The position numbers and the translations under genes were made by a program. Of a stretch of 64,000 bases of DNA, positions 24,346 to 42,067 are shown piece after piece. The notes below the pieces were generated by a model. That model saw nothing but the letters and a program-made list of their open reading frames with translations. It searched no databases and was not told where the DNA came from. The stretch is from Coriobacteriia bacterium (GTDB lineage Bacteria > Actinomycetota > Coriobacteriia > Coriobacteriales > QAMH01): NCBI GenBank assembly GCA_003149935.1, contig QAMH01000007.1:92603-156602 (forward strand), read 5' to 3'. The stretch's first letter is position 1, and the number at the start of each line of letters is the position of its first letter.

Positions 24346-24356
24346 TTATTTCATTA

Positions 24357-25849: not shown

Positions 25850-25897
25850 GGACTGGAAATTTCCGGGTGCCATCGGATGGATGTGGGGGATGAAACG

Positions 25898-25924
25898 CGG
25901 ACGCCGTCTTCCTGACGGCGTCCG
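25898..25924. terminator. Strong hairpin between the ATPase gene end and the tRNA-like 3' end
   Basis: CGGACGCCGTC-TTCCT-GACGGCGTCCG, an 11-bp perfect stem with a 5-nt loop. Confidence 0.6.
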
Positions 25925-25935
25925 ACCTTGTCCTT

Positions 25936-26010
25936 TGGAGCAGGCGACGGGGTTCGAACCCGCGAATACTGGCTTGGGAAGCTCCTGTTCTACCATTGAA
26001 CTACGCCCGC
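25936..26010 (-). tRNA. Hybrid tRNA-Gly(CCC)-like sequence with a disrupted anticodon stem (probable junction product, possibly non-functional)
   Basis: GCGGGCGTAGTTCAATGGTAGAACAGGAGCTTCCCAAGCCAGTATTCGCGGGTTCGAACCCCGTCGCCTGCTCCA. Acceptor, D and T arms fold normally, but the anticodon stem strands GGAGC/GCCAG pair at only 2 of 5 positions. Confidence 0.6.
25972..25982. repeat. 11-nt core shared by both junctions (att-core candidate, left copy)
   Basis: GCTTGGGAAGC on the plus strand (the anticodon loop plus 2 nt on each side). Identical copy at 40945-40955. Confidence 0.65.
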
Positions 26011-26082
26011 AGTGCCGGCCTATTATACTCTTCCCTATCCGCATCGCCACGGGCATTTCAGCAAATCCCCATGGGTCGCACC

Positions 26083-26565
26083 CTAAGCGGCCTCCCTCAG
26101 GAAGTTCATGTAGCGCGCGCCGATGCCTATTCCGGTATTCGGCACGTACCCGGCGTAGAGGTCAAGCGTGTAGGCGGAGCTGGCGTGCCCCATGAACACC
26201 GACACCGTCTTGATGTTCTCGCCGTTGGCGAGGTTCAACGTCGCGAAGGTGTGTCGGAGGGCGTAGGGGCGTACTCCCTCGAACCCGGCGTCGGCCGCGA
26301 ACCTCAGCCAGTCGCGGTGTCACGATTGGTAGGTTTGGGGGATCATCTCGGGGCCACATACCAGCATGCTCATGGACGGCTTGAAACCGAGTTCCTTCAT
26401 CAGGTTCGACTTGAGCTCTATCCATTGCCTCAGAACCTCTGCCGTGTACTCATCGACGGGAACGCTGCGCTTCGACGCGTCGGATTTGGGGTACTCCCTT
26501 ATCTCCTTGCCGTCGCAGTCTCGCGCCTGGCGCCCCGAGACGCCCCTATCCAAGGAAGTCTGCAT
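26083..26565 (-). pseudogene. Tyrosine recombinase/integrase remnant (C-terminal catalytic half only, with an in-frame TGA)
   Basis: ALRHTFAT... and [17 protein letters not shown] (catalytic Tyr region). In-frame TGA at 26320-26322 (...QTYQS*HRDWLRF...). The frame closes at 26575-26577 and the Crp/Fnr gene end overlaps it, so the N-terminal half is missing. Confidence 0.8.
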
Positions 26566-27322
26566 CGTGGTGACCTAACAACTCCGACATGGTGCTCAGC
26601 TGCCGTTTGAAGCGCGGGGATCGCCTCCACTTCTCAGTCCAGATGAGAATGGAATTGGGTCGTAGTGTTACCATCCCGTCGGCCTCCATCTTCTTGAGCG
26701 CTCGCGACACGTTGGCACGCTCCGCGTGAATGATGGTGCCTACTGTCTCATGGGTCATGGCAAGCTCCAGCGCGCCTTCCTGGTCTCCGTGCATGCGCCA
26801 AAGGCACATGGCGAACAGTCGCTCGATGCGATTGGCGATGCGCGTTCCCTGCAAGATCCACGATTGGCGCACGTAATTGGTGGTGTTGTTGGAAGTTCCC
26901 GCCAACACATCGACAAGCAGCCTTGCATCATGTCTGATGACATCCATATAGGCACGCTCGGGAATGACGCAGACCTCCAGGTCCGTAGCCGCAAAGATGT
27001 AGTCGCCAGCATCGGCGCCAAGGTAGGCCCCGGTTTCACCAATGGTGTCTCCAACCCCCAGCACGCAGCTCACAAGCTTGTCGCCATTTTCCTGGAGAAG
27101 ATACGAAATCGCCAGCCCTCGCATGATGACCATCACGTAATTCGTTACCCCACGCTCGATGATCTGCCCTCGCAAATAGTTCTTTGTGAGCACACCCGTA
27201 ATTACGGGGCCCTCATGCAGTCTGCTGCATATATGCCGGAAATGGCACTTTCTCTGGAGCTTGCAATACGCTGGCTTGCCGCCTGCAGCGCCGTTGTCCC
27301 CCGAATCGCCCTTCGTACCCAT
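26546..27322 (-). CDS. Crp/Fnr-family transcriptional regulator with N-terminal Cys cluster
   Basis: Effector-domain pattern plus C-terminal HTH ([29 protein letters not shown]). N-terminal [13 protein letters not shown]. Divergent from the Mo-enzyme operon. Confidence 0.8.
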
Positions 27323-27403
27323 AGCCCCTCCATCTATTTATGAGCTGCGAAACATTATAATCTCCTGCACTTACTCCAACGCCTGCCAGCCAGCTCAAGC
27401 GAG

Positions 27404-27419
27404 TGTGTTAGGTAACACA
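27404..27419. promoter_or_regulatory. Candidate Crp/Fnr-family operator
   Basis: TGTGTTA-GG-TAACACA is a perfect palindrome (TGTGT-N6-ACACA, CRP-like) in the divergent region 27323-27624. The adjacent ACGTGTCT motif is repeated at 27423 and 27443. Confidence 0.5.
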
Positions 27420-27624
27420 TTCACGTGTCTTTTACCATGTGAACGTGTCTCTAATCACTGAAAAAGTCCCCCGAACCCACTAATCTGGCAGCCATGATCG
27501 ATCATGAAGGTACCACTATCGTGGCTTAGGTTCGCGCGCTTCCTCATGGGTTTCCAGACACCCCATGTCCCTTGCGCGTGTGCAACCCCAAGCCACTTCT
27601 CCAAAGAAGATAGGGGGATTCTAA

Positions 27625-30171
27625 ATGACTGATCAATATGCACCGCTCGAAGGGCAGCTCGAAGAAGTCAAGTGCAAACTCCTTGCCCGCCACGAAGGTG
27701 AGACCATCGAGTTTTCCACCTGCCCCAACAACGGATGCTTTGACATGTGCGTGCTCAAGCAGCATGTCAAGAACGGCAAGGTCGTTTCCATCGAGACCGA
27801 CGATAGCATTCACAAGGGCATGGGACGCGAGGATAAGTACTGTCCTTGGGAGGACATACAGCTGGGCATGTATCAAAAGCGTGCCTGCGTACGCGGCCGC
27901 GGCCAGCGTTCCGACGCCTATTCGCCGACGCGCCTGCTCTATCCCATGAAGCGCAAGGGCCCCAAGCCATCCTGGGACTTCGAGCGCATCAGCTGGGACG
28001 AGGCACTAGACGAAATCGCCAACAAATACATGGAGACCCGCGAGAAGTATGGCCCCTTGAGCGTCTATTCCGATGGCATGCAGGGCCAAACCTGGGATCC
28101 GTTTGGCGAGTACATGGGCGGCGCCATCGCCCTGTGGGGCGAGGACTCCTTCGAGCCCACCAACACCGCCGACATGCTCACCTACAACATCCAGAACACC
28201 CTTTGCTTCGGCATTGACGGCCTGTCCGAAAACCAGACCTTCTTCGACGCCAAGGCAATCATTCTCATCGGCTTCGATGCGGCAATCAACTATCCCGAGA
28301 CGGTCTACTACCTGCTGCTGGCCAAGGAAAAGGGCGTGCCCATCATCACCATCGACCCACGCTACACCTGGACTGCCGAGGCCATCGGCACCCAGCACAT
28401 CTTCATCCGCCCGGGCACCGACCTTGCCCTGCTCGAGGCCATGGCCTATGTGCTCTTCAGCGAGGAGCTCTACGACAAGGAATTCTGCGATCAGTGGGTC
28501 GAGCCTGAGGGCTTCGAGCTCTATCGCGCCTACATCACCGGCATCGCCGATGGCGAGATTCCCAAGACGCCCGAATGGGCCGAGGGCATCACCGGCATTC
28601 CCGCCGAGACTATCTACGATCTCGCCCGCTTCTATGGAGAAGCCAAACCCTGCTACATCCGCATGGTTTGGGCAGCAGCTCGGCAGGTCTACGGCAAACA
28701 GGCGGCTCGTGGCCTCAACTATCTGCAGGCCCTTGGCGGCAACATCGGCCACAACGGCTGCGCAGGCTCCGGTGTCGGCTTCTCCGGCGCCGAGCACATC
28801 ATGACACCCTTTGCCTTCATGCCGCAGTTCATGGGCGAGACCGGGCCCACCACCCCGGCTACCGTCTGTATGGAGGCCGAAATGTGGCATCGCGCCATAC
28901 TCCTTCGCCAGAAGGTCGACGCTGGTGAGATGGACCTCGAGGATTACAAAGCCGAGATCGGCTGCCCCAAGAACACTGAGGCGCCGAACATCCACATGAT
29001 GCTTTGCATCAACTCCAACCGCAATCACCTCTCGGGCTGGTACGGCTGCAACGAACGTCGCGAGGCCATGCTCGCCGTGGATTACATCGCCTTTGCCCAC
29101 TACAATCTCAGGCACCCGAGCATTCCCTATGCCGACATCGTCCTTCCCATTTCGAGTCCGTTCATCGAGGGCGTGAACCAAATCCCCTCCTCGCCTCATA
29201 TGGGAAGCTACACCATCGGCATTAACACGGGCACCCAAAACGCCATGATGTATGGCCGTGGTGGCGGCGACCTTCCTGGCGAGACGCGCCCCATGGGTTG
29301 GATCATCAAGCAGATTGCCGATCGCATGGGTATTGGCGACAAGATCATGCCCGTCATGGAAAGCGTCGGCTGGGAACAATGGGCCGACAAGACCGAAGAA
29401 GTCGCCCATGACGTGTACGACTTCTGGAAGAACATACCCGCGCCCGACGGCCAGATGATGCCCGACGTTCCCGAATGGGAGGAGTTCAGGAAGTATCCCA
29501 TCTACCGCCGCCCTATGGATAGCGGCTATCATGTCTTTGCCCGCGCCCAGATAGAAGGCGGTGCGCCCTTCCCGACCCAGTCCGGCAAGATCGAGTTCTA
29601 TAGCAAGTGGGTTGCGGAAAACGACCTTACTGTCGCACCCTATCCCGATGCGGGCCAGAAGTGCTTTGGCAAGGGCAATCTGCCGCCCATGGCCAAGTAC
29701 AAGCACACCCCTGAGGGCATGATGTCGCCAAAGACCTTGGACTATCCGCTCTACATGGTCACGCCGCATTCCTTCTATCGCCACCACTGCGCCTACGACC
29801 ACAGCCTCTGGTACCGCGACGAATTCCGCAACTCCGTGTGGATGAGCGTCTCGGACGCCAAGGCCCGTGGCATTAAGGATGGCGATAAGGTGCATGTGCA
29901 CTCCACCGTGGGCGAATGTCTTCTCACTGCCTATGTCACGAGCCGCATGACCCCCGGCGTCTGCTGCATCATCTTTGGCCGCTGGTACGAGCCGAGCGGC
30001 ATCAAGACCGAGCTCATGCCCGGCGGCATCGATACGCGCGGCGACTGTAACTTCCTCATCCCGTCAGACTTCTACGATGACGTGCTCGGCGCTGACCTCA
30101 ATAACGCGCTCGTTCAAATCGAGCTGGCAGAAGACTACCTCAAGCTCGACAAGCTCATGGAGGTGAAGTAA
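27625..30171 (+). CDS. DmsA-like molybdopterin (bis-MGD) oxidoreductase catalytic subunit, cytoplasmic type (848 aa)
   Basis: N-terminal Cys group CPNNGCFDMC...ACVRG, MopB core and a DmsA-like C-terminus (...GIKDGDKVHVHSTVGECLLTAYVTSRMTPGV...). No twin-arginine motif. Confidence 0.9.
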   Translation: MTDQYAPLEGQLEEVKCKLLARHEGETIEFSTCPNNGCFDMCVLKQHVKNGKVVSIETDDSIHKGMGREDKYCPWEDIQLGMYQKRACVRGRGQRSDAYSPTRLLYPMKRKGPKPSWDFERISWDEALDEIANKYMETREKYGPLSVYSDGMQGQTWDPFGEYMGGAIALWGEDSFEPTNTADMLTYNIQNTLCFGIDGLSENQTFFDAKAIILIGFDAAINYPETVYYLLLAKEKGVPIITIDPRYTWTAEAIGTQHIFIRPGTDLALLEAMAYVLFSEELYDKEFCDQWVEPEGFELYRAYITGIADGEIPKTPEWAEGITGIPAETIYDLARFYGEAKPCYIRMVWAAARQVYGKQAARGLNYLQALGGNIGHNGCAGSGVGFSGAEHIMTPFAFMPQFMGETGPTTPATVCMEAEMWHRAILLRQKVDAGEMDLEDYKAEIGCPKNTEAPNIHMMLCINSNRNHLSGWYGCNERREAMLAVDYIAFAHYNLRHPSIPYADIVLPISSPFIEGVNQIPSSPHMGSYTIGINTGTQNAMMYGRGGGDLPGETRPMGWIIKQIADRMGIGDKIMPVMESVGWEQWADKTEEVAHDVYDFWKNIPAPDGQMMPDVPEWEEFRKYPIYRRPMDSGYHVFARAQIEGGAPFPTQSGKIEFYSKWVAENDLTVAPYPDAGQKCFGKGNLPPMAKYKHTPEGMMSPKTLDYPLYMVTPHSFYRHHCAYDHSLWYRDEFRNSVWMSVSDAKARGIKDGDKVHVHSTVGECLLTAYVTSRMTPGVCCIIFGRWYEPSGIKTELMPGGIDTRGDCNFLIPSDFYDDVLGADLNNALVQIELAEDYLKLDKLMEVK

Positions 30172-30173
30172 CC

Positions 30174-30932
30174 ATGACCCAGTACGCATTCTTCTTTGAC
30201 CAGAGCCGTTGCACAAATTGCCATGCCTGCGCCGTGGCCTGCAAGGACTGGAACTATGGAGAGGAAATCGAGTCCACCAACGTTAAATGGCTGCGCATGA
30301 TGCAGTGGGAAAAGGGCGTCTATCCGGAAGTCGAGATGCACACGCTCATGGCCACCTGCTACCACTGTGAAAAGCCCATTTGCGTGGATTCCTGTCCCAA
30401 CCATGCGCTCTTCAAGGAAGACGAGTTCGGCGCCGTCCTGCTCGATTCCGACAAGTGCAAGGGCACCCGTCAATGCTGGGTTGCCTGCCCTTATGGCGCT
30501 CCCCAATACGAGGATAACGCCCCTGGCACGCCCATGAGCAAGTGCACGATGTGTTATGACAGGCTCGTGGAGGGCGAACTGCCCATCTGCGTGGCCGCAT
30601 GCCCCCAGCGCGCGCTCGACTTTGGCCCCATCGAGGAGATGCGGGAGCGCTATGGCGATCTCGCGGCCCTCGAGGACATGCCCTCACCCGACACAGTGCA
30701 GCCCGCCGTCGTTTTCAAGCCGAGGACGACCAAGCAAAAGCACGTGAAGTATGACCCGTCCAAAGTTCTTGACATCATGGGGATCCGCGCCGACACGGGC
30801 TTCCCTGACATCTACGAAAAGCACGAGGATGTCACGCAGGTTTGGGATGGCCTCGTTGGCTATGACAAGCTCGTCATGAAAGCGGCAAGTGTGGAGGAGA
30901 CGCTTGCCCGCTCAAAGAACGAAGACGGCTGA
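30174..30932 (+). CDS. DmsB-like 4Fe-4S cluster subunit (252 aa)
   Basis: CTNCHACAVACK, CYHCEKPICVDSCP, CKGTRQCWVACP and CTMCYDR...CVAACP motifs. Starts 3 nt after the catalytic subunit stop. Confidence 0.9.
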   Translation: MTQYAFFFDQSRCTNCHACAVACKDWNYGEEIESTNVKWLRMMQWEKGVYPEVEMHTLMATCYHCEKPICVDSCPNHALFKEDEFGAVLLDSDKCKGTRQCWVACPYGAPQYEDNAPGTPMSKCTMCYDRLVEGELPICVAACPQRALDFGPIEEMRERYGDLAALEDMPSPDTVQPAVVFKPRTTKQKHVKYDPSKVLDIMGIRADTGFPDIYEKHEDVTQVWDGLVGYDKLVMKAASVEETLARSKNEDG

Positions 30933-31080
30933 TACCCCTTTTCCGTGGATGGGCCGGCCTCTAGCAGCCCCCGCTGTCGGCCCATTCGCTTCTCTCATGC
31001 TACCAAGGGCGTGGCGTGCATCACGCGAAGCGTGACACCAAGATGCGTCCTTGACCCCCAACTCCAAGGAGGGAATCATT

Positions 31081-31527
31081 ATGGCTATTCACTCTGGGCA
31101 TACGTCCATTTGCGTATCCGACATGGGCCGCGCGCTCGATTTCTACTGCGGCGTCTTGGGCCTGAAGATGTCAAAGGATTACGGAACCACGCCTGCCGAT
31201 GGCCTAACGCGCGTTTCGGGTTCCACCATGACTTTCAACTTGCTTGAAGACTCCGAGGGAAACCAATGCGTCGAGCTCTTCCAGTTCGAAAACATCCGCC
31301 AGCGCAAGTTCGATGGCACCTCGCGTCATGAGGACTTCTGGTCGAGCCATGTCTGCTTCCTCTTCGATCCGGAAAGCATCGATGAGGTCTACCAGCGCAT
31401 CGTGGATTCGGGGGCGGGTATCGACATACCCCTTTCCGACATGGACGGCGGCAAGTTCGCCTATGTCTATGACCCTGACGGTTACATGGTTGAGCTCGTC
31501 ACCTGGTATAACGGCCGCGCGGAATAG
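31081..31527 (+). CDS. VOC/glyoxalase-fold protein
   Basis: GHTSICVSDMGRALDFYCGVLGLK... and ...YVYDPDGYMVEL. Start at ATG 31081 behind an AAGGAGGG RBS. Confidence 0.8.
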   Translation: MAIHSGHTSICVSDMGRALDFYCGVLGLKMSKDYGTTPADGLTRVSGSTMTFNLLEDSEGNQCVELFQFENIRQRKFDGTSRHEDFWSSHVCFLFDPESIDEVYQRIVDSGAGIDIPLSDMDGGKFAYVYDPDGYMVELVTWYNGRAE

Positions 31528-31616
31528 GCCCGCTTCGGGCGAACATCGTCTCCTGACATCGCTCGTGTTTGTACAGGCCGAGCTTTGCTCGGCTCGCCTT
31601 CAGAAAGGATACAGCA

Positions 31617-32360
31617 ATGTCTTATGCAATCGTTACCGGCGCAAGCCGTGGCCTTGGCGCCGGAATGGCAAAGAAACTGGCCCAAATGGGCTACGATGTC
31701 GTCGTTAACTACACCTCCGAGTCAAGCGCCGAGAAGGCCCAAACCGTCGCAGATGATATTATCGGCGTCTACAATAAGAAGGCTCTTGTGGTCAAGGCCG
31801 ACATGTCTACCCTCGAAGGCTGCGAGCAGTTGGTTTATGAGTCGCGCGAGCATTTCGGCGACGACATTGCAGTGCTTATCAACAATGCCGGCATCTCCCA
31901 GACTCAGGATTTCCTTGACACCTCGCTCGAGCGCATTAAGTTCATTGTCGACACCAACCTCATGAGCGTGCTCTACATGAGCCGCCTAGTCTATCCCCTC
32001 ATGGTGGATAAGGGCAAAGGTTGCGTCATCGACATCGCCTCCACCGGCGGCATCAACGGCTGCCAGGGACAAATCGTTTACACGGCCACCAAGGCGGGCA
32101 TCATCGGCCTGGTCAAGGGCTTCACGGCCGAGTTCGCGCATTTGGGCATACGCACTAACGCCATCGCCCCCGGCCTCACCGAAACCGACATTATCCGTGG
32201 CCTGGGCGAAGAGGCCATCGAGTACTGCAAGAACACCAACCCCATGCGCGACAACGGCACCGTTGATGATATCGTCGATGCCATGGAATACCTGGTGAAG
32301 ACGCGCTTCGTGTGCGGTCAGACCATCGTTGTCGATGGCGGCGGATCGGTGGTTGCCTGA
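31617..32360 (+). CDS. Short-chain dehydrogenase/reductase (SDR)
   Basis: VTGASRGLGAGMA and YTATKAGI (YxxxK). Start at ATG 31617. Confidence 0.9.
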   Translation: MSYAIVTGASRGLGAGMAKKLAQMGYDVVVNYTSESSAEKAQTVADDIIGVYNKKALVVKADMSTLEGCEQLVYESREHFGDDIAVLINNAGISQTQDFLDTSLERIKFIVDTNLMSVLYMSRLVYPLMVDKGKGCVIDIASTGGINGCQGQIVYTATKAGIIGLVKGFTAEFAHLGIRTNAIAPGLTETDIIRGLGEEAIEYCKNTNPMRDNGTVDDIVDAMEYLVKTRFVCGQTIVVDGGGSVVA

Positions 32361-33655: not shown

Positions 33656-33751
33656 GGGCAGGGGTTCCGGGCAACGGATGTCTGCGGCATTGCTCGTCTC
33701 GTGCTGGAGCCGAGCATTGCTCGGCCCGCCGCAACCAAGTTACGAAAGGCC

Positions 33752-34249
33752 ATGGTCATGACCATTGATGAAACGGACAAGGAGGCATCCGCCTACGCCC
33801 TCGAGTTGTTCGCCCAGCACCCCGAGCCCACAGGTCGGCTGCTATTCGTCTTGAACGGGCTTCAGGAGCGCTTTCGCTACCTTCCCGCCAGCGCCTGCGA
33901 GGTTATTGCCAGCGAGCTCGGGCTCGAAGACTCCGACGTTCGCGCCTTCGCCAGCGCCTTTCGCAACTACTCGCTCGATCCCGTGGGCCGCGTCGTAGTG
34001 GAGGTATGCGATGGCGCGGCCTGCCATGCCGCCGGTGCCGAAAAGCTCATCGCCAAATTGGAGGGCCAGCTTGGCATCAAGTGCGGCACCACAAGCGATG
34101 ATGGCCTCTTCACACTGCGCACGGTGCGCTGTGTGGGATCATGCTCGGCGGCTCCCATCACAGTCATAGAAGGCGACGTCCGCGGTCACATGCGCATCTC
34201 CCAGATGGGCGACCTAATCTCGCAGATTAAGGGGCTTGCCAATGAATAG
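33752..34249 (+). CDS. NuoE/HydC-like thioredoxin-fold [2Fe-2S] protein
   Basis: VCDGAACHAAG...VRCVGSCSAAP Cys pattern typical of the 24-kDa subunit family. Start at ATG 33752. Confidence 0.8.
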   Translation: MVMTIDETDKEASAYALELFAQHPEPTGRLLFVLNGLQERFRYLPASACEVIASELGLEDSDVRAFASAFRNYSLDPVGRVVVEVCDGAACHAAGAEKLIAKLEGQLGIKCGTTSDDGLFTLRTVRCVGSCSAAPITVIEGDVRGHMRISQMGDLISQIKGLANE

Positions 34250-36101
34250 TGAAGCACTCGAGAGCTTGCGTCGGTGCGGTAAGGCCCAGCTGGGCACGTA
34301 CCCCCGCATAACGGTGGGCCTCGGCACCTGCGGTAACGCTGCCGGAGCCCAGAAGGTCTACGACGCTTTCCAGGAGACCCTTGCCGGCGCTATAGCCGAA
34401 GGCCGCGTGCGCTTGGACGGCGTCGGCTGCCGAGGCGCCTGCTGGGCCGAGCCTCTCGTTGAGGTGCAGATGGGAGACGGGCGCAGCTATGTCTTTGCCA
34501 ACGTGACCGAGGGCCGCGCCCCCATCATCGCCAAGCAGGTTCTGGCAGGCAAGCTCAACGCCCGCCGCTGCATCGGTTACTACCAGTGCGGCGCAGATTC
34601 CGAAGATGTTTCCTCTCCCTTGCTTGCACAGGTTGAGGACCTCGCATCGGGCCAGAGTCGTTACTTGATGGGCCCTTGCGGCTACCTTGACCCGCTCTCC
34701 TTGGAGCAATATGCCGCGATCGGAGGATTGCGCGCCCTTCAGGCGACGCTATCTAAAGGCGGTGCCGAAGAGGTTCTTCTCAAGCTGGGAGAGGCGGGCC
34801 TGCGTGGGCGCGGAGGCGCAGGCTTTCCCACGGCTCAGAAGTGGCGTGCCGCGGCAGACTCCGACGACCCCGTGCGCTATGTCATCGTCAACGGCGACGA
34901 AGGCGATCCTGGAGCCTATATGGACCGCACACTCATGGAATCGGCCCCTTACCAGGTGCTTGAGGGTGCGCTTCTCGCTGCCGTAGGCATTGGCGCCCAC
35001 GAGGTCATCGTTTTCGTGCGAAGCGAGTACAAGCAGGCCTGCACGACCCTCGAGCGCGCCGTCCAGGTGCTGCGCGAGAACGGGGTCATCGGGCCAAACG
35101 CTCTTGGCAGCGGCTACGGGCTCGACGTCTTTGTCGAGAAAAGCGCCGGATCTTTTGTGTGCGGGGAGGAGACGGCGCTCATCGCTGCGTTTGAAGGTCG
35201 CATACCTCGACCCTCGAAAAAGCCGCCCTATCCCGCGGAGCGTGGCCTGTTCGGGCATCCCACAGTCATCGACAACGTCGAGACTCTCGCCAACGCACCC
35301 CTCATCGTTGCCGGCGGCGTTGGGTCCTTTCGCAGCCATGGCACGGTCCTGTGCCCGGGTACCAAGACCATCTGCCTCACCGGTGCCGTCAATCGAACGG
35401 GCGTGGTCGAAGTTGACATGGGCACGCCGCTGTCCCACGTGGTCTGCGAGCTTGGTGGTGTCGACGAGGCCAGCGTCAAGGCGGTGCAGCTCGGAGGTCC
35501 TTCCGGGGCTTTCATCGCCCAAGGCGAACTCGGCATGCCCCTCGACTTCGAGAGCATCGCCCAGGAGGGTACCATCATGGGCTCTGGAGGCGCGCTTGTC
35601 ATCGGGCAGGGCGATTGCGTCGTTGACCTCACCCGCTACCTCATGGAGTTTTGCGCCGAGGAGTCCTGCGGACGTTGCAAGCCTTGCGCCGGTGGGACAA
35701 GGGAGTGCGCTCGCATTTTGGAGCGCCTGTGTGACGGCCAGGGGCATCCGGAGGATCTGGATGGGCTTGAGGATTTGGGGAACGCAATGATGCGCGGCTC
35801 TCTTTGCGGTTTGGGCAAGTCCGCCTCAGGACCGTTGCTCAGCGCGATCGCGCAATTTCGCCCTGAGTTCGAGGCCCATATTGAGGGTACGTGCCCCAGC
35901 GCCGTATGCCGCAGCCTGGTGCAGCTCGTCATCGTGCCCGAAAAGTGCCAAGGCGAGCGCTGCTGCCTGGGGACCTGCCCCGGAAACGCCGTCAAAGGCA
36001 AGTTCGGCAAGCCTGGCACCATCGACCCGCGCCTGTGCGAGAAGTGCTTCACTTGCATCGACGCCTGCCCCTACGACGCCATAAAGGTGCTTCCCAGCTG
36101 A
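34242..36101 (+). CDS. NuoF/HydB-like NAD(H)- and FMN-binding Fe-S flavoprotein with C-terminal 2x[4Fe-4S] domain
   Basis: GRGGAGFPTAQKW, FVCGEETALIAAFEG and ESCGRCKPCAGGTRE motifs. N-terminal thioredoxin-like extension and C-terminal CxxCxxCxxxCP-type ferredoxin domain. Start overlaps the upstream stop. Confidence 0.85.
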   Translation: MNSEALESLRRCGKAQLGTYPRITVGLGTCGNAAGAQKVYDAFQETLAGAIAEGRVRLDGVGCRGACWAEPLVEVQMGDGRSYVFANVTEGRAPIIAKQVLAGKLNARRCIGYYQCGADSEDVSSPLLAQVEDLASGQSRYLMGPCGYLDPLSLEQYAAIGGLRALQATLSKGGAEEVLLKLGEAGLRGRGGAGFPTAQKWRAAADSDDPVRYVIVNGDEGDPGAYMDRTLMESAPYQVLEGALLAAVGIGAHEVIVFVRSEYKQACTTLERAVQVLRENGVIGPNALGSGYGLDVFVEKSAGSFVCGEETALIAAFEGRIPRPSKKPPYPAERGLFGHPTVIDNVETLANAPLIVAGGVGSFRSHGTVLCPGTKTICLTGAVNRTGVVEVDMGTPLSHVVCELGGVDEASVKAVQLGGPSGAFIAQGELGMPLDFESIAQEGTIMGSGGALVIGQGDCVVDLTRYLMEFCAEESCGRCKPCAGGTRECARILERLCDGQGHPEDLDGLEDLGNAMMRGSLCGLGKSASGPLLSAIAQFRPEFEAHIEGTCPSAVCRSLVQLVIVPEKCQGERCCLGTCPGNAVKGKFGKPGTIDPRLCEKCFTCIDACPYDAIKVLPS

Positions 36102-36330
36102 ATGTGTCAAGTTGTGTCAAGTCACCGTATGGCGGGCTCAGGCGAGCATTGGCAATCGTCACCTTATGGCTAAATCGTCCGCACCCCCATAGCTATAGTT
36201 CTGACATGGCAAAAATCGACATCACGCGCGAAGCTTGACTAGCGCGAAGGCAGTCGGCTGATGGCTGCATTATCACGCTTTTGGTTCTCGTTATATGGCG
36301 CAACAATACCAATTATGGTATGGTTCTGCC

Positions 36331-36864
36331 ATGAGCTATTACGACGACATATACGAGATTGCCGTAGATAACCACGGGTACGTCTCCACGGAAACGGCCT
36401 CAAGGGTCGGGGTCCCGGCTGTAGAGCTCGCGAAGCTGGCTCACAGGGGAAGGCTGGAGAACATCTCTCGGGGGCTCTACCGCCTTACCCGGTTCGTCCC
36501 TACCGAGAACGGCTCTTATGCGGAAGCTGTGGCGAGACTTGGAGGCGACGCGTACCTATTCGGCGAGTCCGTCATAGCCATGCTCGGACTCGCTCCGACA
36601 AACCCGAGCTACATCTGCGTGGCGACCCCCCATCGCACTAGGCGCAAGCTTCCAGCCTATATAAGGGTGAAGAAGCCAGGGAAAGGCGACACGGTCACCT
36701 CATATGACGGAATCCCGAGCCAGGATGTCGCGACGGCCGTTCGAAGCGCAAAGGCGACGATGATGGACGAGCGACTGCGAGATGCCGTGGAGGAGGCGAG
36801 ATGCCAGGGGTATCTCAGGCGCGATGATTACGAGAGCCTCAAGAAAGACATGGGATGGGAATGA
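36331..36864 (+). CDS. abiEi: AbiEi-type antitoxin/transcriptional regulator (type IV TA)
   Basis: N-terminal wHTH (...GYVSTETASRVGVPAVELAKLAHRGRLENISRGLYRL...) and position directly upstream of an AbiEii-type nucleotidyltransferase. Confidence 0.75.
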   Translation: MSYYDDIYEIAVDNHGYVSTETASRVGVPAVELAKLAHRGRLENISRGLYRLTRFVPTENGSYAEAVARLGGDAYLFGESVIAMLGLAPTNPSYICVATPHRTRRKLPAYIRVKKPGKGDTVTSYDGIPSQDVATAVRSAKATMMDERLRDAVEEARCQGYLRRDDYESLKKDMGWE

Positions 36865-36893
36865 AGTGACCAAACAGTCAGCGCAACCTCGAC

Positions 36894-37639
36894 ATGGCGA
36901 TCCGCCGCCTCGGCGCAGGTGAGAAAGCCTTCCTTTCGAACCGGAGCATCATCGCAAACGCGATCGTCGGACAGCTGATGGCCGGAGCCGTGGTGAAAGG
37001 CGGCTCGTCCCTGAAGATACGCTTCGGGAACGCGGCAACGAGAGCGACCACCGACTTCGATGCCGCGAGGTCTGTCGGCGAATACGAGTTCGAGGAAGGG
37101 TTCGCGAAAGTTTGGCAACAGGATGGGAGGGCTTCACGGGCCGACTTGTCGAGCTGCCGAAGGCGCATCCGGAAGGCGTCCCAGAGCCGTACGTCATGCA
37201 GCCCTACGCAGTCAAGCTGAGCTATCTGGGAAGACCGTGGTGCACCGTCGACCTGGAGCTGGGCTACAACGAGCTCGGAGATGCCGACCACGCCGATATG
37301 GTGGTTCCCGCCGATGCGAACGAACTGCTTGCCGCGATGGGGCTTCCGGAGTTCGGACCGATTCCGCTCATGGCCCTTCATTACCAGATTGCCCAGAAGC
37401 TCCATGGCGCATCGGAGCCGGGAAGCCAAAGGGCTCATGACTTGGTCGACCTTCAGATCATGGTCGAAAACGGCGAAATAGAACTTCGCGCGACAAGAAA
37501 TACGTGCATCCGCCTGTTTTCATATCGGCGCATGCAAGCGTGGCCTCCTGAGTTCCATCTTTTTGCGAAGAAGGGCAGGGGCGTGATGATGCATGGCGGC
37601 AAAGACGATTGGCTCTGCAGGAAAGCTTTGAGAATATAG
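36894..37639 (+). pseudogene. abiEii: AbiEii-type nucleotidyltransferase toxin, frameshifted
   Basis: KGGSSLKIRFG...TTDFDAA NTase motif. ORF pieces 36894-37220 and 37112-37639 join (..EEGFAK|SLATGWEGF..) if one A is added to the AAA run at 37107-37109. Confidence 0.7.
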
Positions 37640-37727
37640 TCGCAGATTCGAAAACCTTCGGGTTTTACAAGGGCCGATCTCGCGGGATTGGCCCTAGTTT
37701 TACCCAGCCCTCTTTTACGATCCTCCA

Positions 37728-38993
37728 TCAGGCGCATCCCCTTTCGAACTGCATGAAAGCCGGACGAACCGCTTCATTGCGCATGTGCTCCAGCTCCGAT
37801 GCGTTGGCGGAGAGCACCTCGCACATCTTCACGTAGCGCCCGTAGCGCTCCTCGCATGCGGCCCAGTAGCGCTGGCAGGAGGCGTCCTCGGCGCATCTCT
37901 CCAGCACCTCGAACTCGGGCGGGCGACTGCCGTCCATGTAGAGCTGCGACCTGATGACGCTGCGCCTCGTCTGCACCTTGCGCCAGAGCTTCGCGAAGCC
38001 GGGGTCGACCTGGGCGAGGCCGGGCATGTCCAGGGGCTCCCCGTCGGCCCCCAGGATGTCGGGCGCTATGGGCTCGTCGGCCCAGGCGGCCAGCCCGTCG
38101 TCGCATTCGAGCCAGCGCGGAAGGTTCTTCGCGAGGCGGTTGTCGTCGCCGTTCCTGATCCAGTAGTCCTTGGCGTAGGCCGCATACGCGTCGATGATCT
38201 GCTCCGGCTCGAAGCCCGATGCCACCCTGGCCTTCCAGACCTTCAGGCAGTCCCGCTTGAACTTGAGCGACGTGAGCGGCTTGAGCGACAGGGCGCACAG
38301 CCGCTCGAACGGCTCCGGGAACTCGCCCTTCCGGTACTCCCTGAAATCCCCTGCGCCCTTCTCCCCCGGCCTGTCGGCTGGCTCCGAGTCGCAAGAGAGG
38401 GGTTCTTTTAGTTCTTTATCGCCTTTGGGCGATTTATCGGATGAGTAATTTATAGGTGCCGGTTTCCCAGATGTGGGTTTTCCAGATACGGGTTTTCCCG
38501 TTCTGGTTCTGAGTTGGGACGACTTGCCGGTTTCGTCCGTTTCGCAGGTTTCGCCCTCGCGTTCCTCGGCTTTCGCAGAGTCGTTATCGTGAGGGGCTTC
38601 CGGTGACGTTTGGGAATGCTCGAACTCCGACAGCACGGCGAACCCGTCAGCCTTCAGCTCCGCGCACACGTCATCGTGCATCGCCGGGTCGTCGAGGGTT
38701 ACCCAGGTGGCCTCCTCGGCCTTCAGGAAGCGGCCGTTCTCGCTGCGCTTGCGGGCGCGGATGATGTAGCCCGCCGCCTCGAGCTCCTTGATGCCGGCGG
38801 TCACCGCGTCCGCGCCGTCGCGCACGAGCGAGGCGAACCCCTTGATGGTGAACACCCACTCGGGGTTGCCCTCAAGCGAGCGTATCTGGCAGTAGATGCC
38901 CTTGGCCTTCGCCGAGAGGCCGTGGTCGAAGAAGATGGTGTTCTCGACGTGCGTGAAGGAGCCCTTGCCCCTGTGCATAACGTTGCCCATCAC
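37728..38993 (-). CDS. Plasmid/phage-type wHTH protein, putative replication initiator
   Basis: N-terminal wHTH-like region (FTHVENTIFFDHGLSAKAKGIYCQIRSL...AGIKELEAAGYI), a low-complexity linker (GKPVSGKPTSGKPAP), and a start overlapping the parB stop. Confidence 0.55.
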   Translation of the reverse strand: MMGNVMHRGKGSFTHVENTIFFDHGLSAKAKGIYCQIRSLEGNPEWVFTIKGFASLVRDGADAVTAGIKELEAAGYIIRARKRSENGRFLKAEEATWVTLDDPAMHDDVCAELKADGFAVLSEFEHSQTSPEAPHDNDSAKAEEREGETCETDETGKSSQLRTRTGKPVSGKPTSGKPAPINYSSDKSPKGDKELKEPLSCDSEPADRPGEKGAGDFREYRKGEFPEPFERLCALSLKPLTSLKFKRDCLKVWKARVASGFEPEQIIDAYAAYAKDYWIRNGDDNRLAKNLPRWLECDDGLAAWADEPIAPDILGADGEPLDMPGLAQVDPGFAKLWRKVQTRRSVIRSQLYMDGSRPPEFEVLERCAEDASCQRYWAACEERYGRYVKMCEVLSANASELEHMRNEAVRPAFMQFERGCA

Positions 38994-39934
38994 GCACCGC
39001 CCCGTCCGTCGCGGCGAGCCTCCGCCTGCTCCAAGAGCTCAAGCGCCCGGATGATGCGCCCTTCTATCTCGTCCCTGGTGGCAGTGGGGCGGAAGAAGCG
39101 GGCTATGCTCTTGCGCGGTATCTTGAACTGCTCGACCTGGTTGGGCTTCTCCTCCTCCATGATGGAGCGGATCAGCGCCGGTGTGAGCGAGCCCTCCTTC
39201 GAGTAGCGCTTCAGCTTGATGGCCTGGGCGTGCGAGGGCGTTGCCGCCTGCGCCCCGATGGCGTCCAGCAGGTGCTCCTGCTCGCTCTGGGAGAGATGGC
39301 TTACCTCCACAGCGGGGAGCATCTTCATGCGCCCCTCGTCCACGAGGGCAAGAAGACCTGGAATAAGGAAGGTCAACCGTATGAAGCGTTGAATCCTGTC
39401 CTTACTCACGCCGAGCTCTTCGGCCAAAATGTCACGCGACCTCCTGCCGTCTGACTTGTGCGCAAGTTGCGCACAAGTCAGGTCGGTGCGCTGCCCCTGG
39501 CGCTTCATCGCCTCAAGCCGCATCGAGTACGCGAACGCCCGCTCGCTCGGCAGGATGGTCTCCCTCTGGAGGTTCGAGTCCACCATGGCGATTGTGGCCT
39601 CGTCGTCGGTCAAGCTGCGCACGATGCACGGCGCGCTCTCCAACCCCGCCAGCTCCGCCGCACGCGCGCGCCTGTGCCCGCTCACCAGCTCGTAGCGCTC
39701 GGGGCCCGAAGGCCGCACCGTGAGCGGCACCAGCACCCCGTTCTCGGCGATGCTCTCCGCGAGCCGCTCCATCTCCTCGTCGTCGCGCACCTAGAAGGGA
39801 TGGCCCGGGAACGGGTCGATGAGCGAGAGCGGTATGTCGGCCACGCCTGCGAGGGCGGAGCCGTCGCGCTCCTCCTGCGACGTGAACAGCTCGTCCACGC
39901 CGGGCAGCGTTATGGGAACCTTCCTCCTAGCCAC
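38990..39934 (-). pseudogene. parB: ParB-family partition protein with an in-frame TAG
   Basis: ParB box LVSGHRRARAAELAG. The reading frame continues upstream of the ORF-track start through a single TAG at 39791-39793 (...DPFPGHPF*VRDDEEM...) to a GTG at 39934 that overlaps the parA stop. Confidence 0.75.
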
Positions 39935-40712
39935 GGGCGATCACCTCCTCTGCGAGGCGTTCGAAGGCGCGCGCCGCCTTTCCGCGCCCGTCGTAGGAGA
40001 AGATGCTCGTCCCCACGGCGGGAGCCTCGGCAGCGGACACCGCCCGGGGGATGACCGTCTCGAACACGCGGTAGGTCTCCCCGTACTGCTCGCGGATGGC
40101 CCCCTCGACCTCGCGGGCCAGGTTGTTGCGGCTGTCGGAGAGCGTGATGAGTATGCCCTCAACGGTTAGCGACGGGTTGATCTGGCGTCGCACGCGCCCG
40201 ACGGTCTTCAAGAGCGCCGTCATGGCGGAGGCGGGAAGGTACTCGGCCGACACCGGCACGAGCACGCTGTCCGCGGCGACGAGGGCGTTCACCGGGATTA
40301 TCCCGAGCGTCGGCGCGCAGTCGATGAGTATGAAGTCGTAGTCCGCCTTGAGGGGCGAGAGCCACACGTTCATCAGCTGCTCGCGCGACATCGCCATGAG
40401 GATGGGCATCTCCATCCCGGCGAGCTCGATGTTCGCGGGCATGAGGTCGATGCCCTCCTTGTGGGGGAGGATTCCCTCGCGGGGATCGAGCCCCTCGCCC
40501 TCGATAACCGTGTTCAGATGATTCGCGAGCGTGACCTCCAGGGCGTCGGGGTCGCTCCACCCGAGCGACTTGGTGAGGTCGCCCTGCGGGTCGGCGTCCA
40601 CGAGAAGCACGCGCCTCCCGAGGCGCGCGAGCGCCACTCCCAGGCTCAGGGTCGTGGCCGTCTTGCCGGTTCCGCCCTTCTGGTTGGCTACTGCGATCGT
40701 CCTGCATGGCAT
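39927..40712 (-). CDS. parA: ParA-family partition ATPase
   Basis: Deviant Walker A AVANQKGGTGKTATT. Start at ATG 40712 behind a GAAGGAGG RBS (ORF track 40811). Confidence 0.9.
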   Translation of the reverse strand: MPCRTIAVANQKGGTGKTATTLSLGVALARLGRRVLLVDADPQGDLTKSLGWSDPDALEVTLANHLNTVIEGEGLDPREGILPHKEGIDLMPANIELAGMEMPILMAMSREQLMNVWLSPLKADYDFILIDCAPTLGIIPVNALVAADSVLVPVSAEYLPASAMTALLKTVGRVRRQINPSLTVEGILITLSDSRNNLAREVEGAIREQYGETYRVFETVIPRAVSAAEAPAVGTSIFSYDGRGKAARAFERLAEEVIARG

Positions 40713-40788
40713 GTTCCATGCACCTCCTTCTGCGGTTGCCCGCATCTGGAGGTCAGACGGTTCTCGCACGATGTGCGAAAGGCGTGCG

Positions 40789-40798
40789 TTTCGCGAAA
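40789..40798. promoter_or_regulatory. Candidate parS/operator palindrome upstream of parA
   Basis: TTTCGCGAAA is a perfect palindrome. Half-sites TTTCGCG recur at 40910-40916 and 40919-40925. Confidence 0.3.
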
Positions 40799-40944
40799 AT
40801 ACTGGAAGCACACTGGAAAACTCGGGGTTTCAGGAAAAGCGGAGAAGTTGGAAGCGTTTCCCCTGTTTCAAAAACCATGCCTTTGAACTGGGGATTTCTC
40901 GATTGCGCATTTCGCGCGTTTCGCGGGACGCTACCCTGCCAACA

Positions 40945-40955
40945 GCTTGGGAAGC
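40945..40955. repeat. 11-nt core shared by both junctions (att-core candidate, right copy)
   Basis: GCTTGGGAAGC, identical to 25972-25982. Confidence 0.65.
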
Positions 40956-40983
40956 CAGGGCCTTACCACTTGGCGACCCCCGC
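40945..40983 (-). pseudogene. Orphan 5' half of a tRNA-Gly(CCC) gene
   Basis: GCGGGGGTCGCCAAGTGGTAAGGCCCTGGCTTCCCAAGC covers the acceptor 5' strand, the D arm, anticodon-stem strand CTGGC and the loop, then diverges into non-tRNA sequence. Confidence 0.8.
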
Positions 40984-41051
40984 ATGGGTGAGCATTATAC
41001 CGTTCTCCCGCACAGAAGTCTCGAAGTAGGCGGTGCTTTCAGGTGCTATCG

Positions 41052-42007: not shown

Positions 42008-42067
42008 GACACGCCACCTGTTTCGATTGGGCTTTCCCGCGCGGCAATAGGCGAGCCTACGGCTATA

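Follow-up and report, generated by a model that had tools for sequence, protein, structure and literature searches.

The locus studied here raises the question of how a tRNA-Gly(CCC) gene came to be split in its anticodon loop by about 15 kb of DNA, and why the tRNA-shaped sequence at one junction is a hybrid whose anticodon stem strands scarcely pair. We analyzed a 64,000-nt stretch (the window) from a Coriobacteriia bacterium (GCA_003149935.1, contig QAMH01000007.1, positions 92,603-156,602, forward strand). An earlier sequence-only reading had attributed the structure to site-specific integration of an element whose attachment site is built on a tRNA 5′ half; overall, that interpretation is partly supported.

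Integration in the anticodon loop of tRNA-Gly(CCC)

The insert occupies positions 25983-40944 (14.96 kb). At its integrase-proximal end lies the hybrid tRNA-Gly(CCC) pseudogene (25936-26010, minus strand), composed of an element-borne 5′ half (26010-25983), a core, and the native 3′ part (25971-25936). At the distal end lies an orphan native tRNA-Gly(CCC) 5′ half (40945-40983, minus strand), which has its own TATAAT box at 40994-40999 and is followed by non-tRNA sequence, with no tRNA 3′ half at this junction. The 11-nt core, GCTTCCCAAGC, extends from the anticodon loop 2 bp into the stem on either side and is present at 25972-25982 (minus strand) and, within the orphan half, at 40945-40955; CTTCCCAAG occurs four times in the window, where chance predicts 0.37. 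The hybrid, the orphan half, and the two cores had all been described in the sequence-only reading, and we recovered each of them where it had been placed.

That reading also predicted an empty site, which we found in a metagenome contig, L004 (Logan ERR11477159), where the orphan 5′ half, the core, and the 3′ part are contiguous. L004 1-1829 matches window 24154-25982 at 99.9% identity, L004 1819-4148 matches window 40945-43274 at 97.8% identity, and the overlap of the two matches is exactly the 11-nt core. Insertion of a ∼15-kb plasmid-like element at the anticodon loop is thereby confirmed, in support of site-specific integration. The native tRNA that had been rebuilt on paper contains a G6·G67 acceptor mismatch, as does the natural empty-site allele. 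A hybrid at an uninterrupted locus was looked for and not seen, as all five hybrid-carrying assemblies also contain the element.

Because the window matches a metagenome contig exactly and contigs can be wrongly joined at tRNA repeats, the junctions might be taken for assembly artifacts across repeated tRNA sequence. However, both junctions are present in five independent assemblies (ERZ27236825, GCA_048480685.1, SRR5903386, SRR32733331, and ERZ18627041) that come from different projects and assemblers and carry strain-specific SNPs, and the chance of an assembly chimera is practically negligible. The orphan-half junction recurs in L016, L017, L019, L020, and L023, and the window-type parA end was found joined to three tRNA-Gly 5′ halves (CTGGC, CCAGC, and CGAGC).

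Plasmid-type parA, parB, and rep genes together with tRNA-Gly sequence on the element could also suggest a co-integrate, formed by RecA-type homologous recombination between a plasmid-borne and a chromosomal tRNA-Gly with no site-specific recombinase. We consider this highly improbable. The identity shared at both ends is 11 nt only; the crossover falls exactly at the anticodon loop and the inverted stem bases that flank it, and across dozens of family members it is always at the anticodon loop or, in two, at the T arm/3′ end; conserved arm repeats and a tyrosine integrase gene lie next to it; and the distal junction lacks the tRNA 3′ half expected from reciprocal full-gene exchange.

The hybrid tRNA

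Read from 26010 to 25936 on the minus strand, the hybrid is GCGGGCG TA GTTC AATGGTA GAAC A GGAGC TTCCCAA GCCAG TATTC GCGGG TTCGAAC CCCGT CGCCTGC TCCA. Its acceptor, D, and T arms pair, and U73 and CCA are encoded; the acceptor arm, previously called normal, does pair but includes a G3·U70. In the anticodon stem (GGAGC/GCCAG), only 2 of 5 positions are paired, as three consecutive non-Watson-Crick oppositions (G·G, G·A, and A·C) leave a 2-bp stem. The earlier impression of a defective gene was borne out: ARAGORN made no call, and the Rfam tRNA model (gathering score 29) gave 49.4 bits versus 62.8 bits for the intact paralogous tRNA-Gly(CCC) at 16506-16580 (minus strand), which ARAGORN does call and which has the D arm and promoter type of the split gene. 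With a minimum free energy of -22.8 kcal/mol, versus -29 to -34 in comparators, the hybrid ranks last in score and in fold stability among the tRNA-Gly genes compared.

A TATAAT box lies 11 nt upstream (26022-26027, minus strand) and is probably the element's own tRNA promoter; TATAAT or TATACT is similarly close upstream of most family tRNAs, and a sigma-70 scan at the hybrid promoter returned no -35/-10 pair. In L002, the box is changed to TGTAAT. In all, three independent substitutions (25942, 26004, and 26026) fall in the hybrid or its -10 box in strains that differ by 0.1-0.3% elsewhere. Found in different strains, they alter the -10 box and the acceptor pairs 3:70 and 7:66, which points to relaxed selection. 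The hybrid is probably nonfunctional and accumulating substitutions. Loss of function is most likely rather than proven, as the hybrid passes the Rfam threshold and has kept a -10 box along with intact acceptor, D, and T arms. These retained features, the encoded U73 and CCA, and the G6·G67 mismatch tolerated by the native allele would all suit a working tRNA-Gly(CCC), produced by imperfect regeneration of the target. With a 2-bp anticodon stem, rejection by ARAGORN, the last place in both score and fold, scattered substitutions, and an intact paralogue on the other side, we regard a working hybrid as decidedly unlikely. The same paralogue makes loss of the split copy tolerable.

Family architecture, decay of the window copy, and probable origin of the hybrid

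The insert belongs to a family of ParA/ParB/Rep-like integrative elements that is widespread among gut Coriobacteriia. A genome scan with an integrase alignment yielded 62 loci, 46 of them in Coriobacteriia genera, and a complete tRNA-Gly follows the integrase gene in 42 of these 46, at a spacing of 46-130 nt. About 230 nt further on, ∼30 of them have a second anticodon-loop core with non-tRNA sequence before it and a native tRNA 3′ half after it; the element tRNA and this core are separated by a ∼190-nt spacer with conserved arm-type repeats. Upstream of the core, most distinct spacers, from CCC and UCC targets, contain a CCAGTR pair at ∼90-115 nt and GGTCAGACGG at ∼46 nt; in the corresponding arms on the parA side (Y), the CCAGTR pair is at +128/+139, and CTGACC occurs in inverted orientation near +185. 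We interpret the spacer as the P arm of the attachment site and its repeats as presumptive integrase-binding sites; in L061, the order is P arm, core, Y, and parA, and homology between this element and the window ends at the core. Identical element tRNAs and spacers are joined to different native 3′ halves (L029/L031/L032 and L055/L056/L059/L064). Because a complete tRNA-Gly is present in 42 of 46 loci and is followed in ∼30 relatives by a P arm and an orphaned native 3′ half, the family does not regenerate its target, and an attP built on a 5′ half, as previously proposed, is not supported for this element type. L118 and L201 have the complete counterpart of the window 5′ half (GCGGGCGTAGTTCAATGGTAGAACAGGAGCTTCCCAAGCTTCTAACGCGGG..., with partner strand GCTTC), which scores 69.0 bits with a 5-bp stem, and the window 5′ half is the front of such an element-borne tRNA.

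Compared with these relatives, the window copy is decayed. The integrase remnant adjoining the hybrid (26083-26565, minus strand) is real, as had been claimed. It covers residues 311-462 of a ∼462-aa integrase (79% tblastn identity to L034 Int, over those residues only; homologues match PF00589); this is the last third only, without the N-terminal domains and catalytic Arg I, and it contains an in-frame TGA. The same remnant is present in every copy, and its truncation point is overlapped by the 3′ end of a Crp/Fnr-type regulator gene (26546-27322, minus strand; Pfam HTH_Crp_2 and cNMP_binding). The cargo operon (27625-36101, plus strand), annotated by Pfam, NCBIfam, and gene calls on the identical contig, encodes a DMSO-reductase-family molybdoenzyme (27625-30171), a 4Fe-4S subunit (30174-30932), a glyoxalase (31081-31527), an SDR (31617-32360), an MFS transporter (32360-33655), and NuoE-like (33752-34249) and NuoF-like (34242-36101) proteins. 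It is followed on the same strand by an AbiEi antitoxin gene (36331-36864; Pfam AbiEi_4) and an AbiEii toxin pseudogene (36894-37639). The parA gene (39927-40712, minus strand; 261 aa; Pfam AAA_31, CbiA, and ParA) has more than 5000 relatives, and all those with source names are from Coriobacteriia.

Part of the earlier inventory between the cores needs correcting. AbiEii is frameshifted, lying in two frames in the window, and is intact (261 aa) in L006, L009, and L011. The parB pseudogene (38993-39934, minus strand; ParB_N domain) has a CAG-to-TAG change at codon 48 (Q48*, ∼39793); tblastn with the 314-aa L008 ParB gave one frame with one mismatch, and the DNA alignment a c-to-t change. The "Rep-like" gene (37728-38990, minus strand), in an operon with parAB and with its position after parB conserved in all elements, encodes a 420-aa putative replication initiator with a weak HTH_36 match and no NCBIfam or PDB sequence match. 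In the P′ arm, or Y (40713-40944, minus strand), CCAGTR occurs at 40816-40811 and 40805-40800 and CCGTCTGACC at 40760-40751, at the same distances as in other Y arms and with matching motifs in relatives' P arms; the window contains no P-arm motif. With no P arm, two thirds of the integrase lost, and parB and abiEii broken, the window copy is a fossil, now locked in.

We think it probable that the insert is a decayed member of a family of spare-tRNA elements and that the hybrid is a scar of this decay. In an intact member, an integrase gene, a promoter and complete tRNA-Gly on the same strand, and a P arm of ∼190 nt bearing arm-type repeats precede a 9-11-nt core that matches the host tRNA-Gly anticodon loop exactly; a P′ arm and then parA come after it. 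Crossover in the anticodon loop does not rebuild the host gene but leaves its 5′ half at the parA end and its 3′ half at the integrase end; the element's own tRNA-Gly would substitute for the lost function, as in tRNA-dependent lysogeny. A second recombination in the window copy, probably core-to-core, would have removed the 3′ half of the element tRNA along with the P arm and fused the anticodon-loop core of that tRNA directly to the native 3′ half, placing GGAGC (natural partner GCTTC) opposite GCCAG. One possible route is that a further element had integrated in the element-borne tRNA and that mis-paired attR × attL excision then acted on the resulting nested array; the other is direct deletion between two 11-nt cores ∼230 bp apart. 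Nested insertions into element-borne tRNAs are found in L009, L012, L037, L051, L060, L152, L197, and L200; in L012, different elements contribute the two sides, which are 75% and 99.8% identical to a single backbone. No contig contained a window-type element that still had its complete tRNA and P arm at this locus, as the postulated precursor would, nor was the reciprocal product of mis-paired excision found.

Alternatively, attP could natively comprise the promoter, a tRNA 5′ half, the core, and Y, so that integration replaces the host 5′ half and promoter and the hybrid, with its mismatched host stem, is the first-step product. This would give exactly the window structure. Junctions joining the integrase side directly through a core to Y exist (L012, L152, and L200), L057 and L070 have an integrase, then one well-paired tRNA, then chromosomal genes, and 5′ parts are supplied by pelagiphages HTVC021P, HTVC109P, and HTVC120P (bioRxiv 10.1101/410191). 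However, the junctions of this kind that were examined (L009 and L012) join two different elements and are therefore nested insertions, not circles. CCAGTR repeats, position-conserved in the P arms of most spacer-bearing relatives, are absent upstream of the hybrid; the same 5′ half is known as a complete tRNA; and L006 combines the same cargo with a complete tRNA and P arm at a locus orthologous to the window's. For the window, we judge a native 5′-half attP unlikely and favor decay of a spare-tRNA element. In several relatives (L057, L066, L070-72, L078, and L118), one well-paired tRNA and no P arm come after the integrase or its remnant, and the L057 integrase frame looks open (442 codons); true 5′-part supply is therefore possible in some subfamilies.

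The cargo block, from the integrase remnant through AbiE (26053-37549), recurs at ∼99% identity in four or more different element backbones: L006, L009, L011, and L012 match window 26050-37549 at 98.8-99.1% identity, and their Rep-ParB-ParA regions are only 85-91% identical. Their tRNA modules differ as well, and the switch is sharp and lies ∼30 nt past the integrase stop; this counts against the favored reading, which would require extra recombination events.

Comparison with known elements

The closest logic is that of tRNA-dependent lysogeny in actinobacteriophages (Fionnbharth/K4, cluster L, and Gaia), which have a ∼10-bp core and a phage tRNA of the same isotype, lying in Gaia just downstream of int (Guerrero-Bustamante and Hatfull 2024, PMC10865867). 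There, no functional tRNA is reconstructed because attP and attB share only ∼8-10 bp, and integration in tandem was suggested by the authors, with the introduced tRNA gene serving as attB. The elements studied here resemble those phages in their tyrosine integrase, attB within a tRNA gene, short attP/attB identity, and Actinomycetota hosts. They differ in being plasmid-like (parA/parB/rep, with metabolic and defense cargo), with no phage structural genes in the element parts seen, in targeting tRNA-Gly(CCC) and tRNA-Gly(UCC) of Coriobacteriia, and in having a fixed integrase-tRNA-P arm-core cassette and nested arrays in natural genomes. The window copy differs further in lacking a complete tRNA while its genome keeps an intact chromosomal paralogue.

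HTVC019P-type SAR11 pelagiphages also integrate mid-tRNA, with 11-46-bp cores; in some, the host tRNA stays split and the phage brings a complete tRNA of its own, and in others a partial 5′ end is provided, so that the tRNA is reconstituted with altered bases (Zhao et al., bioRxiv 10.1101/410191). Supplying a 5′ part, which the sequence-only reading considered unusual, therefore has a precedent, as does a complete spare tRNA, the latter also in actinobacteriophages (PMC10865867). Unlike the elements here, these pelagiphages are podoviruses of Alphaproteobacteria that target tRNA-Cys, tRNA-Leu, and tRNA-Arg, and a mismatched, apparently dead hybrid such as the window's is not described for them (bioRxiv 10.1101/410191). 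The pTN3-like archaeal integrases likewise use a tRNA gene 5′ half (Cossu et al. 2017, as summarized in PMC8371274), which could also favor a native 5′-half attP; they belong to archaeal plasmids and viruses and to unrelated integrase subfamilies, and the tRNA is reconstituted with no spare tRNA involved.

Classical tRNA islands (Islander, PMC4383910) and AICEs such as pSAM2 (PMC2440964) share the tyrosine integrase, the anticodon-loop crossover, a displaced tRNA fragment at one island end, tandem arrays at one tRNA locus, and, among Actinomycetota, small replicating-integrating elements. In classical islands, the attP tRNA fragment, usually the 3′ part, restores the gene and the original promoter is retained, whereas nothing is restored here and the displaced native pieces lie apart, the 5′ half at one end and the 3′ half at the other.

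Insertion at the anticodon loop of a tRNA-Gly(CCC) gene

The two junctions of the plasmid-like insert (25983-40944) share an 11-nt core, GCTTCCCAAGC, which lies in the anticodon loop (25972-25982 and 40945-40955). The sequence CTTCCCAAG occurs four times in the window versus 0.37 copies expected by chance, and relatives of the element have in common a 9-nt anticodon-loop core that reads either CTTCCCAAG or CCTTCCAAG. At one junction, a tRNA-Gly(CCC)-shaped gene, which we call the hybrid, occupies 26010..25936 on the minus strand and reads GCGGGCG-TA-GTTC-AATGGTA-GAAC-A-GGAGC-TTCCCAA-GCCAG-TATTC-GCGGG-TTCGAAC-CCCGT-CGCCTGC-TCCA. At the other junction lies the orphaned 5' half of the native tRNA-Gly (40983..40945, minus strand), GCGGGGGTCGCCAAGTGGTAAGGCC-CTGGC-TTCCCAA-GC, with a TATAAT box ahead of it and non-tRNA sequence after it. 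We re-read the hybrid, the orphan half and the core, and all three are as the sequence-only reading had described them, at the coordinates it gave.

That reading had also predicted that the uninterrupted locus would be a gene of about 75 nt composed of the orphan 5' half, the core and the 3' part of the hybrid. An exact-protein look-up with the flanking DUF4143 ATPase retrieved this locus from several assemblies and also a 4.7-kb metagenome contig (L004) that carries the predicted empty site: the ATPase gene is followed directly by genes which in the window are located beyond 41 kb, and all three predicted pieces are joined there in a single 75-nt gene. Window 24154-25982 corresponds to L004 1-1829 (99.9% identity) and window 40945-43274 to L004 1819-4148 (97.8% identity); the overlap of the two matches is exactly the 11-nt core, the mark of conservative site-specific recombination within the anticodon loop. 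Five independent assemblies, with strain-specific SNPs, show the occupied state, which is therefore not an assembly artefact. In a further contig (L018 2150-2191), a window-type end of parA and its adjoining P' arm is joined to a 5'-truncated tRNA half (AAGTGGTAAGGCCCCAGC...), and the DUF4143 ATPase gene starts about 115 nt away; this junction looks like a rearranged variant of the window locus. The chromosomal flanks of the window had no match among the species-representative loci compared (L027-L088), and the host is placed no more closely than in uncultured Coriobacteriia, probably Eggerthellaceae.

Between the cores, the genes run from an integrase remnant through a Crp-type regulator, a DMSO-reductase-family molybdoenzyme with its 4Fe-4S subunit, a glyoxalase, an SDR, an MFS transporter, NuoE-like and NuoF-like proteins, AbiEi and a frameshifted AbiEii (36894-37639) to a 420-aa Rep-like protein, parB with a nonsense codon (Q48*; 38993-39934) and parA. 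The Rep-like protein has a weak HTH_36 match and no family in Pfam, NCBIfam or PDB sequences. In the copy from the NCBI MAG, parB is broken elsewhere, into 172 and 133 aa. The integrase remnant, which is interrupted by an in-frame TGA, aligns with residues 311-462 of a 462-aa tyrosine integrase and begins past the GMRPEE region that holds Arg I in full-length relatives; it retains Arg II, His and Tyr, in sequence that includes ...ALRHTFAT..., and so carries an incomplete version of the PF00589 catalytic set (Arg I, Lys, His/Arg II, His/Trp and the Tyr nucleophile). Homologues in relatives are full-length PF00589 proteins, and the identical remnant is found in every copy of the window cargo. 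A megablast of the whole element against PLSDB plasmids gave no match, nor did the hybrid 33-mer among IMG/VR viral contigs.

The hybrid tRNA and its intact paralogue

ARAGORN called a single tRNA in the window, the intact tRNA-Gly(CCC) at 16506-16580 (minus strand), and rejected the hybrid. Pairing is present in the acceptor, D and T arms of the hybrid; its anticodon stem opposes G.G, G.A and A.C, leaving two pairs. With the Rfam tRNA model, the hybrid scored 49.4 bits versus 62.8 bits for the intact gene, the lowest score among the seven tRNA-Gly genes compared, and its minimum free energy was -22.8 kcal/mol versus -29.4 to -33.7 kcal/mol for the others. Among near-identical strains, which differ by 0.1-0.3% over 4-12 kb, the hybrid gene or its -10 box has changed on three separate occasions where about 0.25 changes would be expected: the window lineage has C70T (window 25942) and thereby G3.U70, L005 and L008 have G7A, and the -10 box of L002 reads TGTAAT instead of TATAAT. 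On the side of function, the hybrid scores above the Rfam threshold and has three intact arms. We consider it probable that the hybrid is a pseudogene. G3.U70 is the main identity element for alanyl-tRNA synthetase, and the hybrid, if expressed, could take Ala while reading GGG.

Loss of the split tRNA can be covered by the paralogue at 16506-16580 and, because that gene is intact, dependence of the host on a tRNA supplied by the element appears unlikely in the window genome. The native target carries a G6.G67 acceptor mismatch even at the uninterrupted site (L004 1783-1857; window 40978 with 25945), where it scores 55.7 bits versus 62.8 bits for the paralogue, and it may already have been the weaker of the two before insertion. 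Both paralogues lie close to DUF1847 copies of a segmental duplication with 84-86% identity, which covers DUF1847 and PNPOx-like genes (window 15784-16419 versus 23174-23809, and 19216-19676 versus 23866-24323).

A scan of both junctions for sigma-70 promoters and terminators found nothing, and the putative promoters there are recognized from conserved TATAAT boxes only. The native tRNA promoter and orphan 5' half (window 40994-40712) are now directed into the P' arm, the sequence next to parA which we call Y, and the parA-parB-rep operon; host-promoter read-through could therefore drive the maintenance genes of the element.

A Coriobacteriia element family with an integrase-tRNA-attP cassette

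The sequence-only reading had further proposed that the attP of the element supplies a tRNA 5' half. We scanned one genome per species with an integrase alignment and obtained 62 loci, 46 of them from Coriobacteriia (Adlercreutzia, Eggerthella, Gordonibacter, Ellagibacter, Parvibacter, Slackia, Paraeggerthella, Enterorhabdus and Collinsella). In 42 of these 46, a complete tRNA-Gly lies 46-130 nt downstream of the integrase gene (int) on the same strand, with the anticodon of the target, which is CCC or, in one subgroup, UCC. About 230 nt further on, some 30 loci have a second anticodon-loop core, with non-tRNA sequence before it (a spacer of ~190 nt, the P arm) and a tRNA 3' half after it. One and the same element tRNA, with its spacer, meets different 3' halves in different genomes, which makes the second core the junction. 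In L006, the cargo of the window sits within this full architecture, and the sequence after its orphan 3' half is orthologous to the window flank. The distal end of the element consists of a 5' half, the core, Y and parA, as the window shows and also a highly prevalent element that targets UCC (L202). In relatives, the two ends of the insertion are P arm-core-3' half and 5' half-core-Y, and a functional tRNA is predicted to be rebuilt at neither junction, in relatives or in the window. Integration at the anticodon loop is borne out by L004; the idea of an attP that supplies the 5' half appears less likely, given that a complete tRNA followed by a P arm prevails in the family, but it may apply to some single-tRNA relatives (e.g., L057 and L070).

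A pair of CCAGTR motifs occurs about 90-115 nt ahead of the core, mostly at -103/-91, in most distinct spacers of both CCC- and UCC-targeting elements, and most spacers with the pair also have GGTCAGACGG about 46 nt ahead of the core. In the Y arms of three different elements, a CCAGTR pair lies at +128/+139 with an inverted CTGACC near +185. L061 holds P arm, core, Y and parA in one piece, and its homology to the window Y and parA (79%) stops at the core. Because these repeats are conserved, we infer that they are the arm-type binding sites of a lambda-like attP. The window has no P arm of the family type.

The closest described system is tRNA-dependent lysogeny, reported in 2024 for actinobacteriophages (PMC10865867), in which a tyrosine integrase uses an attB inside a tRNA gene with a core of about 10 bp and the tRNA is not reconstructed. 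The family appears to work in the same way, with its attB in a host tRNA and a short core, and the carriage of a complete tRNA that defines the strategy is seen in the family and is absent from the window copy; unlike the phages, these are plasmid-like elements of Coriobacteriia. In a comparison with classical islands that regenerate their tRNA (Islander, PMC4383910), Y is not a tRNA 3' part, the P arms are non-tRNA sequence and the window hybrid is mispaired. The window does have Islander-like geometry, with a 5' fragment upstream, a full-length gene downstream in the same orientation and an integrase remnant inside; its "intact" gene is an apparently defective chimera and its integrase a fragment. 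An attP that supplies the 5' part also has precedents: pelagiphages use both this and the spare-tRNA solution (10.1101/410191), and PMC8371274 describes pTN3-like integrases as using the tRNA 5' half. The integrated structure in the window resembles this type (pelagiphage HTVC021P or pTN3). However, the 5' half of the hybrid has no flanking arm repeats, and the junctions of an element-borne 5' half (X) with core and Y that we examined are heterologous nested insertions. We found no description of this element family in the literature searched. In our view the split tRNA is a genuine and well-explained scar, left by a new element family that follows an integration strategy of a kind already known.

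Several loci vary this layout. In L202 (9690-10000), a prevalent element, whose exact ParA occurs in 568 collection blocks, is inserted in a tRNA-Gly(UCC) gene by the tyrS and AP-endonuclease genes; its Y arm repeats about 11 nt more of the 3'-side sequence of a tRNA-Gly(UCC) allele, the same allele as in the orphan 3' halves of L040 and L043, which suggests a longer common core. In the Collinsella-type subfamily (L057, L058, L066 and L068) and in L071 from Parvibacter, the element tRNA lies ~130-200 nt after int and has the loop CTTCCCATG, one base different from the attachment core CTTCCCAAG; this loop might protect the element-borne tRNA from use as a target. L045 (+336 after int) and L065 (+363) have the int-complete tRNA-spacer layout with an orphaned native piece that comprises only the last ~17-20 nt (the T-arm 3' strand and acceptor), and their crossover was therefore near the 3' end, not in the anticodon loop. 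In L046-L048 (+341, minus strand) and L197, the orphan 5' half-core-Y is inverted relative to the int-tRNA unit, ~230 nt away. We also considered a split, two-ORF integrase, hinted at by L024 and L026, and rejected it; genomes of cultured strains encode one ORF of ~450-465 aa.

Probable origin of the hybrid and exchange among element backbones

The natural partner strand of the 5' half of the hybrid is GCTTC. We scanned metagenomes with this 29-nt 5' half; most matches were ordinary tRNA-Gly(CCC) genes of unrelated environmental bacteria, and only L118, L152, L197, L200 and L201 were informative. L118 and L201 contain this exact 5' half within complete genes scoring 69.0 bits, and in L118 family-typical upstream sequence precedes the complete tRNA. 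In L009, L012, L037, L051, L060, L152, L197 and L200, either this 5' half or a different one borne by an element runs through the core into Y and parA. The two sides of L012 have 75% versus 99.8% identity to one backbone, and those of L009 72% versus 91%; in both cases examined, the sides come from different elements, and these are therefore nested insertions in element-borne tRNAs, not circles with a 5'-half attP. L012 had been a candidate for such an excised circle with an X-core-Y attP and was rejected: its left parA end is at only 75% identity to the backbone that its right end matches at 99.8%, and the ends of the contig do not overlap.

A standard member at this tRNA would read 5'B-core-Y...int-X-core-3'E-P arm-core-3'B, where B stands for the native tRNA, X for the 5' half of the element tRNA and 3'E for its 3' half. 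The window reads 5'B-core-Y...int'-X-core-3'B and would thus differ by the loss of a segment between two direct copies of the core. This loss could have occurred by direct deletion between the 11-nt repeats or, with canonical reactions only, by entry of a second element into the element-borne tRNA and its subsequent excision through the attR-type X-core-Y2 and the outer attL-type P arm-core-3'B; neither the precursor nor the reciprocal product was found in any contig. Since the window copy keeps only the 5' half of the element tRNA, we interpret it as a decayed derivative and not a working member of the family.

A more far-reaching idea, which we put forward tentatively and with doubt, is that the int-tRNA-attP cassette makes these elements agents of tRNA gene turnover. 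Each integration would kill a resident tRNA-Gly and install the element copy, which would become the landing site for the next element, and, where arrays are nested, mispaired excisions would redistribute promoters and tRNA halves, both 5' and 3', among elements and chromosomes. If so, many "native" tRNA-Gly genes of Coriobacteriia would be fixed element-borne or chimeric copies, which would explain the int 3'-end remnants directly upstream of tRNA-Gly genes in L069, L070 and L078; a host without a paralogue would come to depend on the element, and the window hybrid would be a rare failed product. Apart from turnover, our results extend tRNA-dependent integration from actinobacteriophages to a large plasmid-like family in human and animal gut Coriobacteriia (Eggerthella, Adlercreutzia, Gordonibacter, Collinsella, Slackia and others) and account for one class of defective or chimeric tRNA gene calls. 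The authors of PMC10865867 suggested that tandem integration could use the introduced tRNA gene as its attB; what the phage work could only surmise, nested insertion into a tRNA carried by an element, is seen here in natural genomes.

The block at 26053-37549, which comprises the integrase remnant, the Crp regulator, the molybdoenzyme operon and AbiE, is ~99% identical in L006, L009, L011 and L012. Identity falls to only 85-91% across the Rep-ParB-ParA regions of these elements, and no alignment is possible for their promoter-tRNA modules. Cargo has therefore moved between backbones, or backbones have swapped tRNA modules, and the 5' half is no fixed property of this cargo. The switch of modules falls ~30 nt past the integrase stop, inside a short island, TT(C/G)CTGAAATGACCG (window 26053-26075), which is common to several family members (at the equivalent position in L034, L036, L038, L062, L118, L152 and L200) and may be a recombination hotspot. 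The pattern points to recent horizontal spread of the redox operon among gut Coriobacteriia. Since the molybdoenzyme operon is ~99% identical on at least four backbones, the elements are likely to help spread the redox enzymes to which Eggerthellaceae owe their importance in the metabolism of drugs and diet. Cultured strains (e.g., Ellagibacter isourolithinifaciens DSM 104140) have int-tRNA-attP cassettes that could be developed into integration vectors for these genetically difficult bacteria. The window also contains an FMN riboswitch (58329-58470; 100.5 bits), which is unrelated to the tRNA finding.
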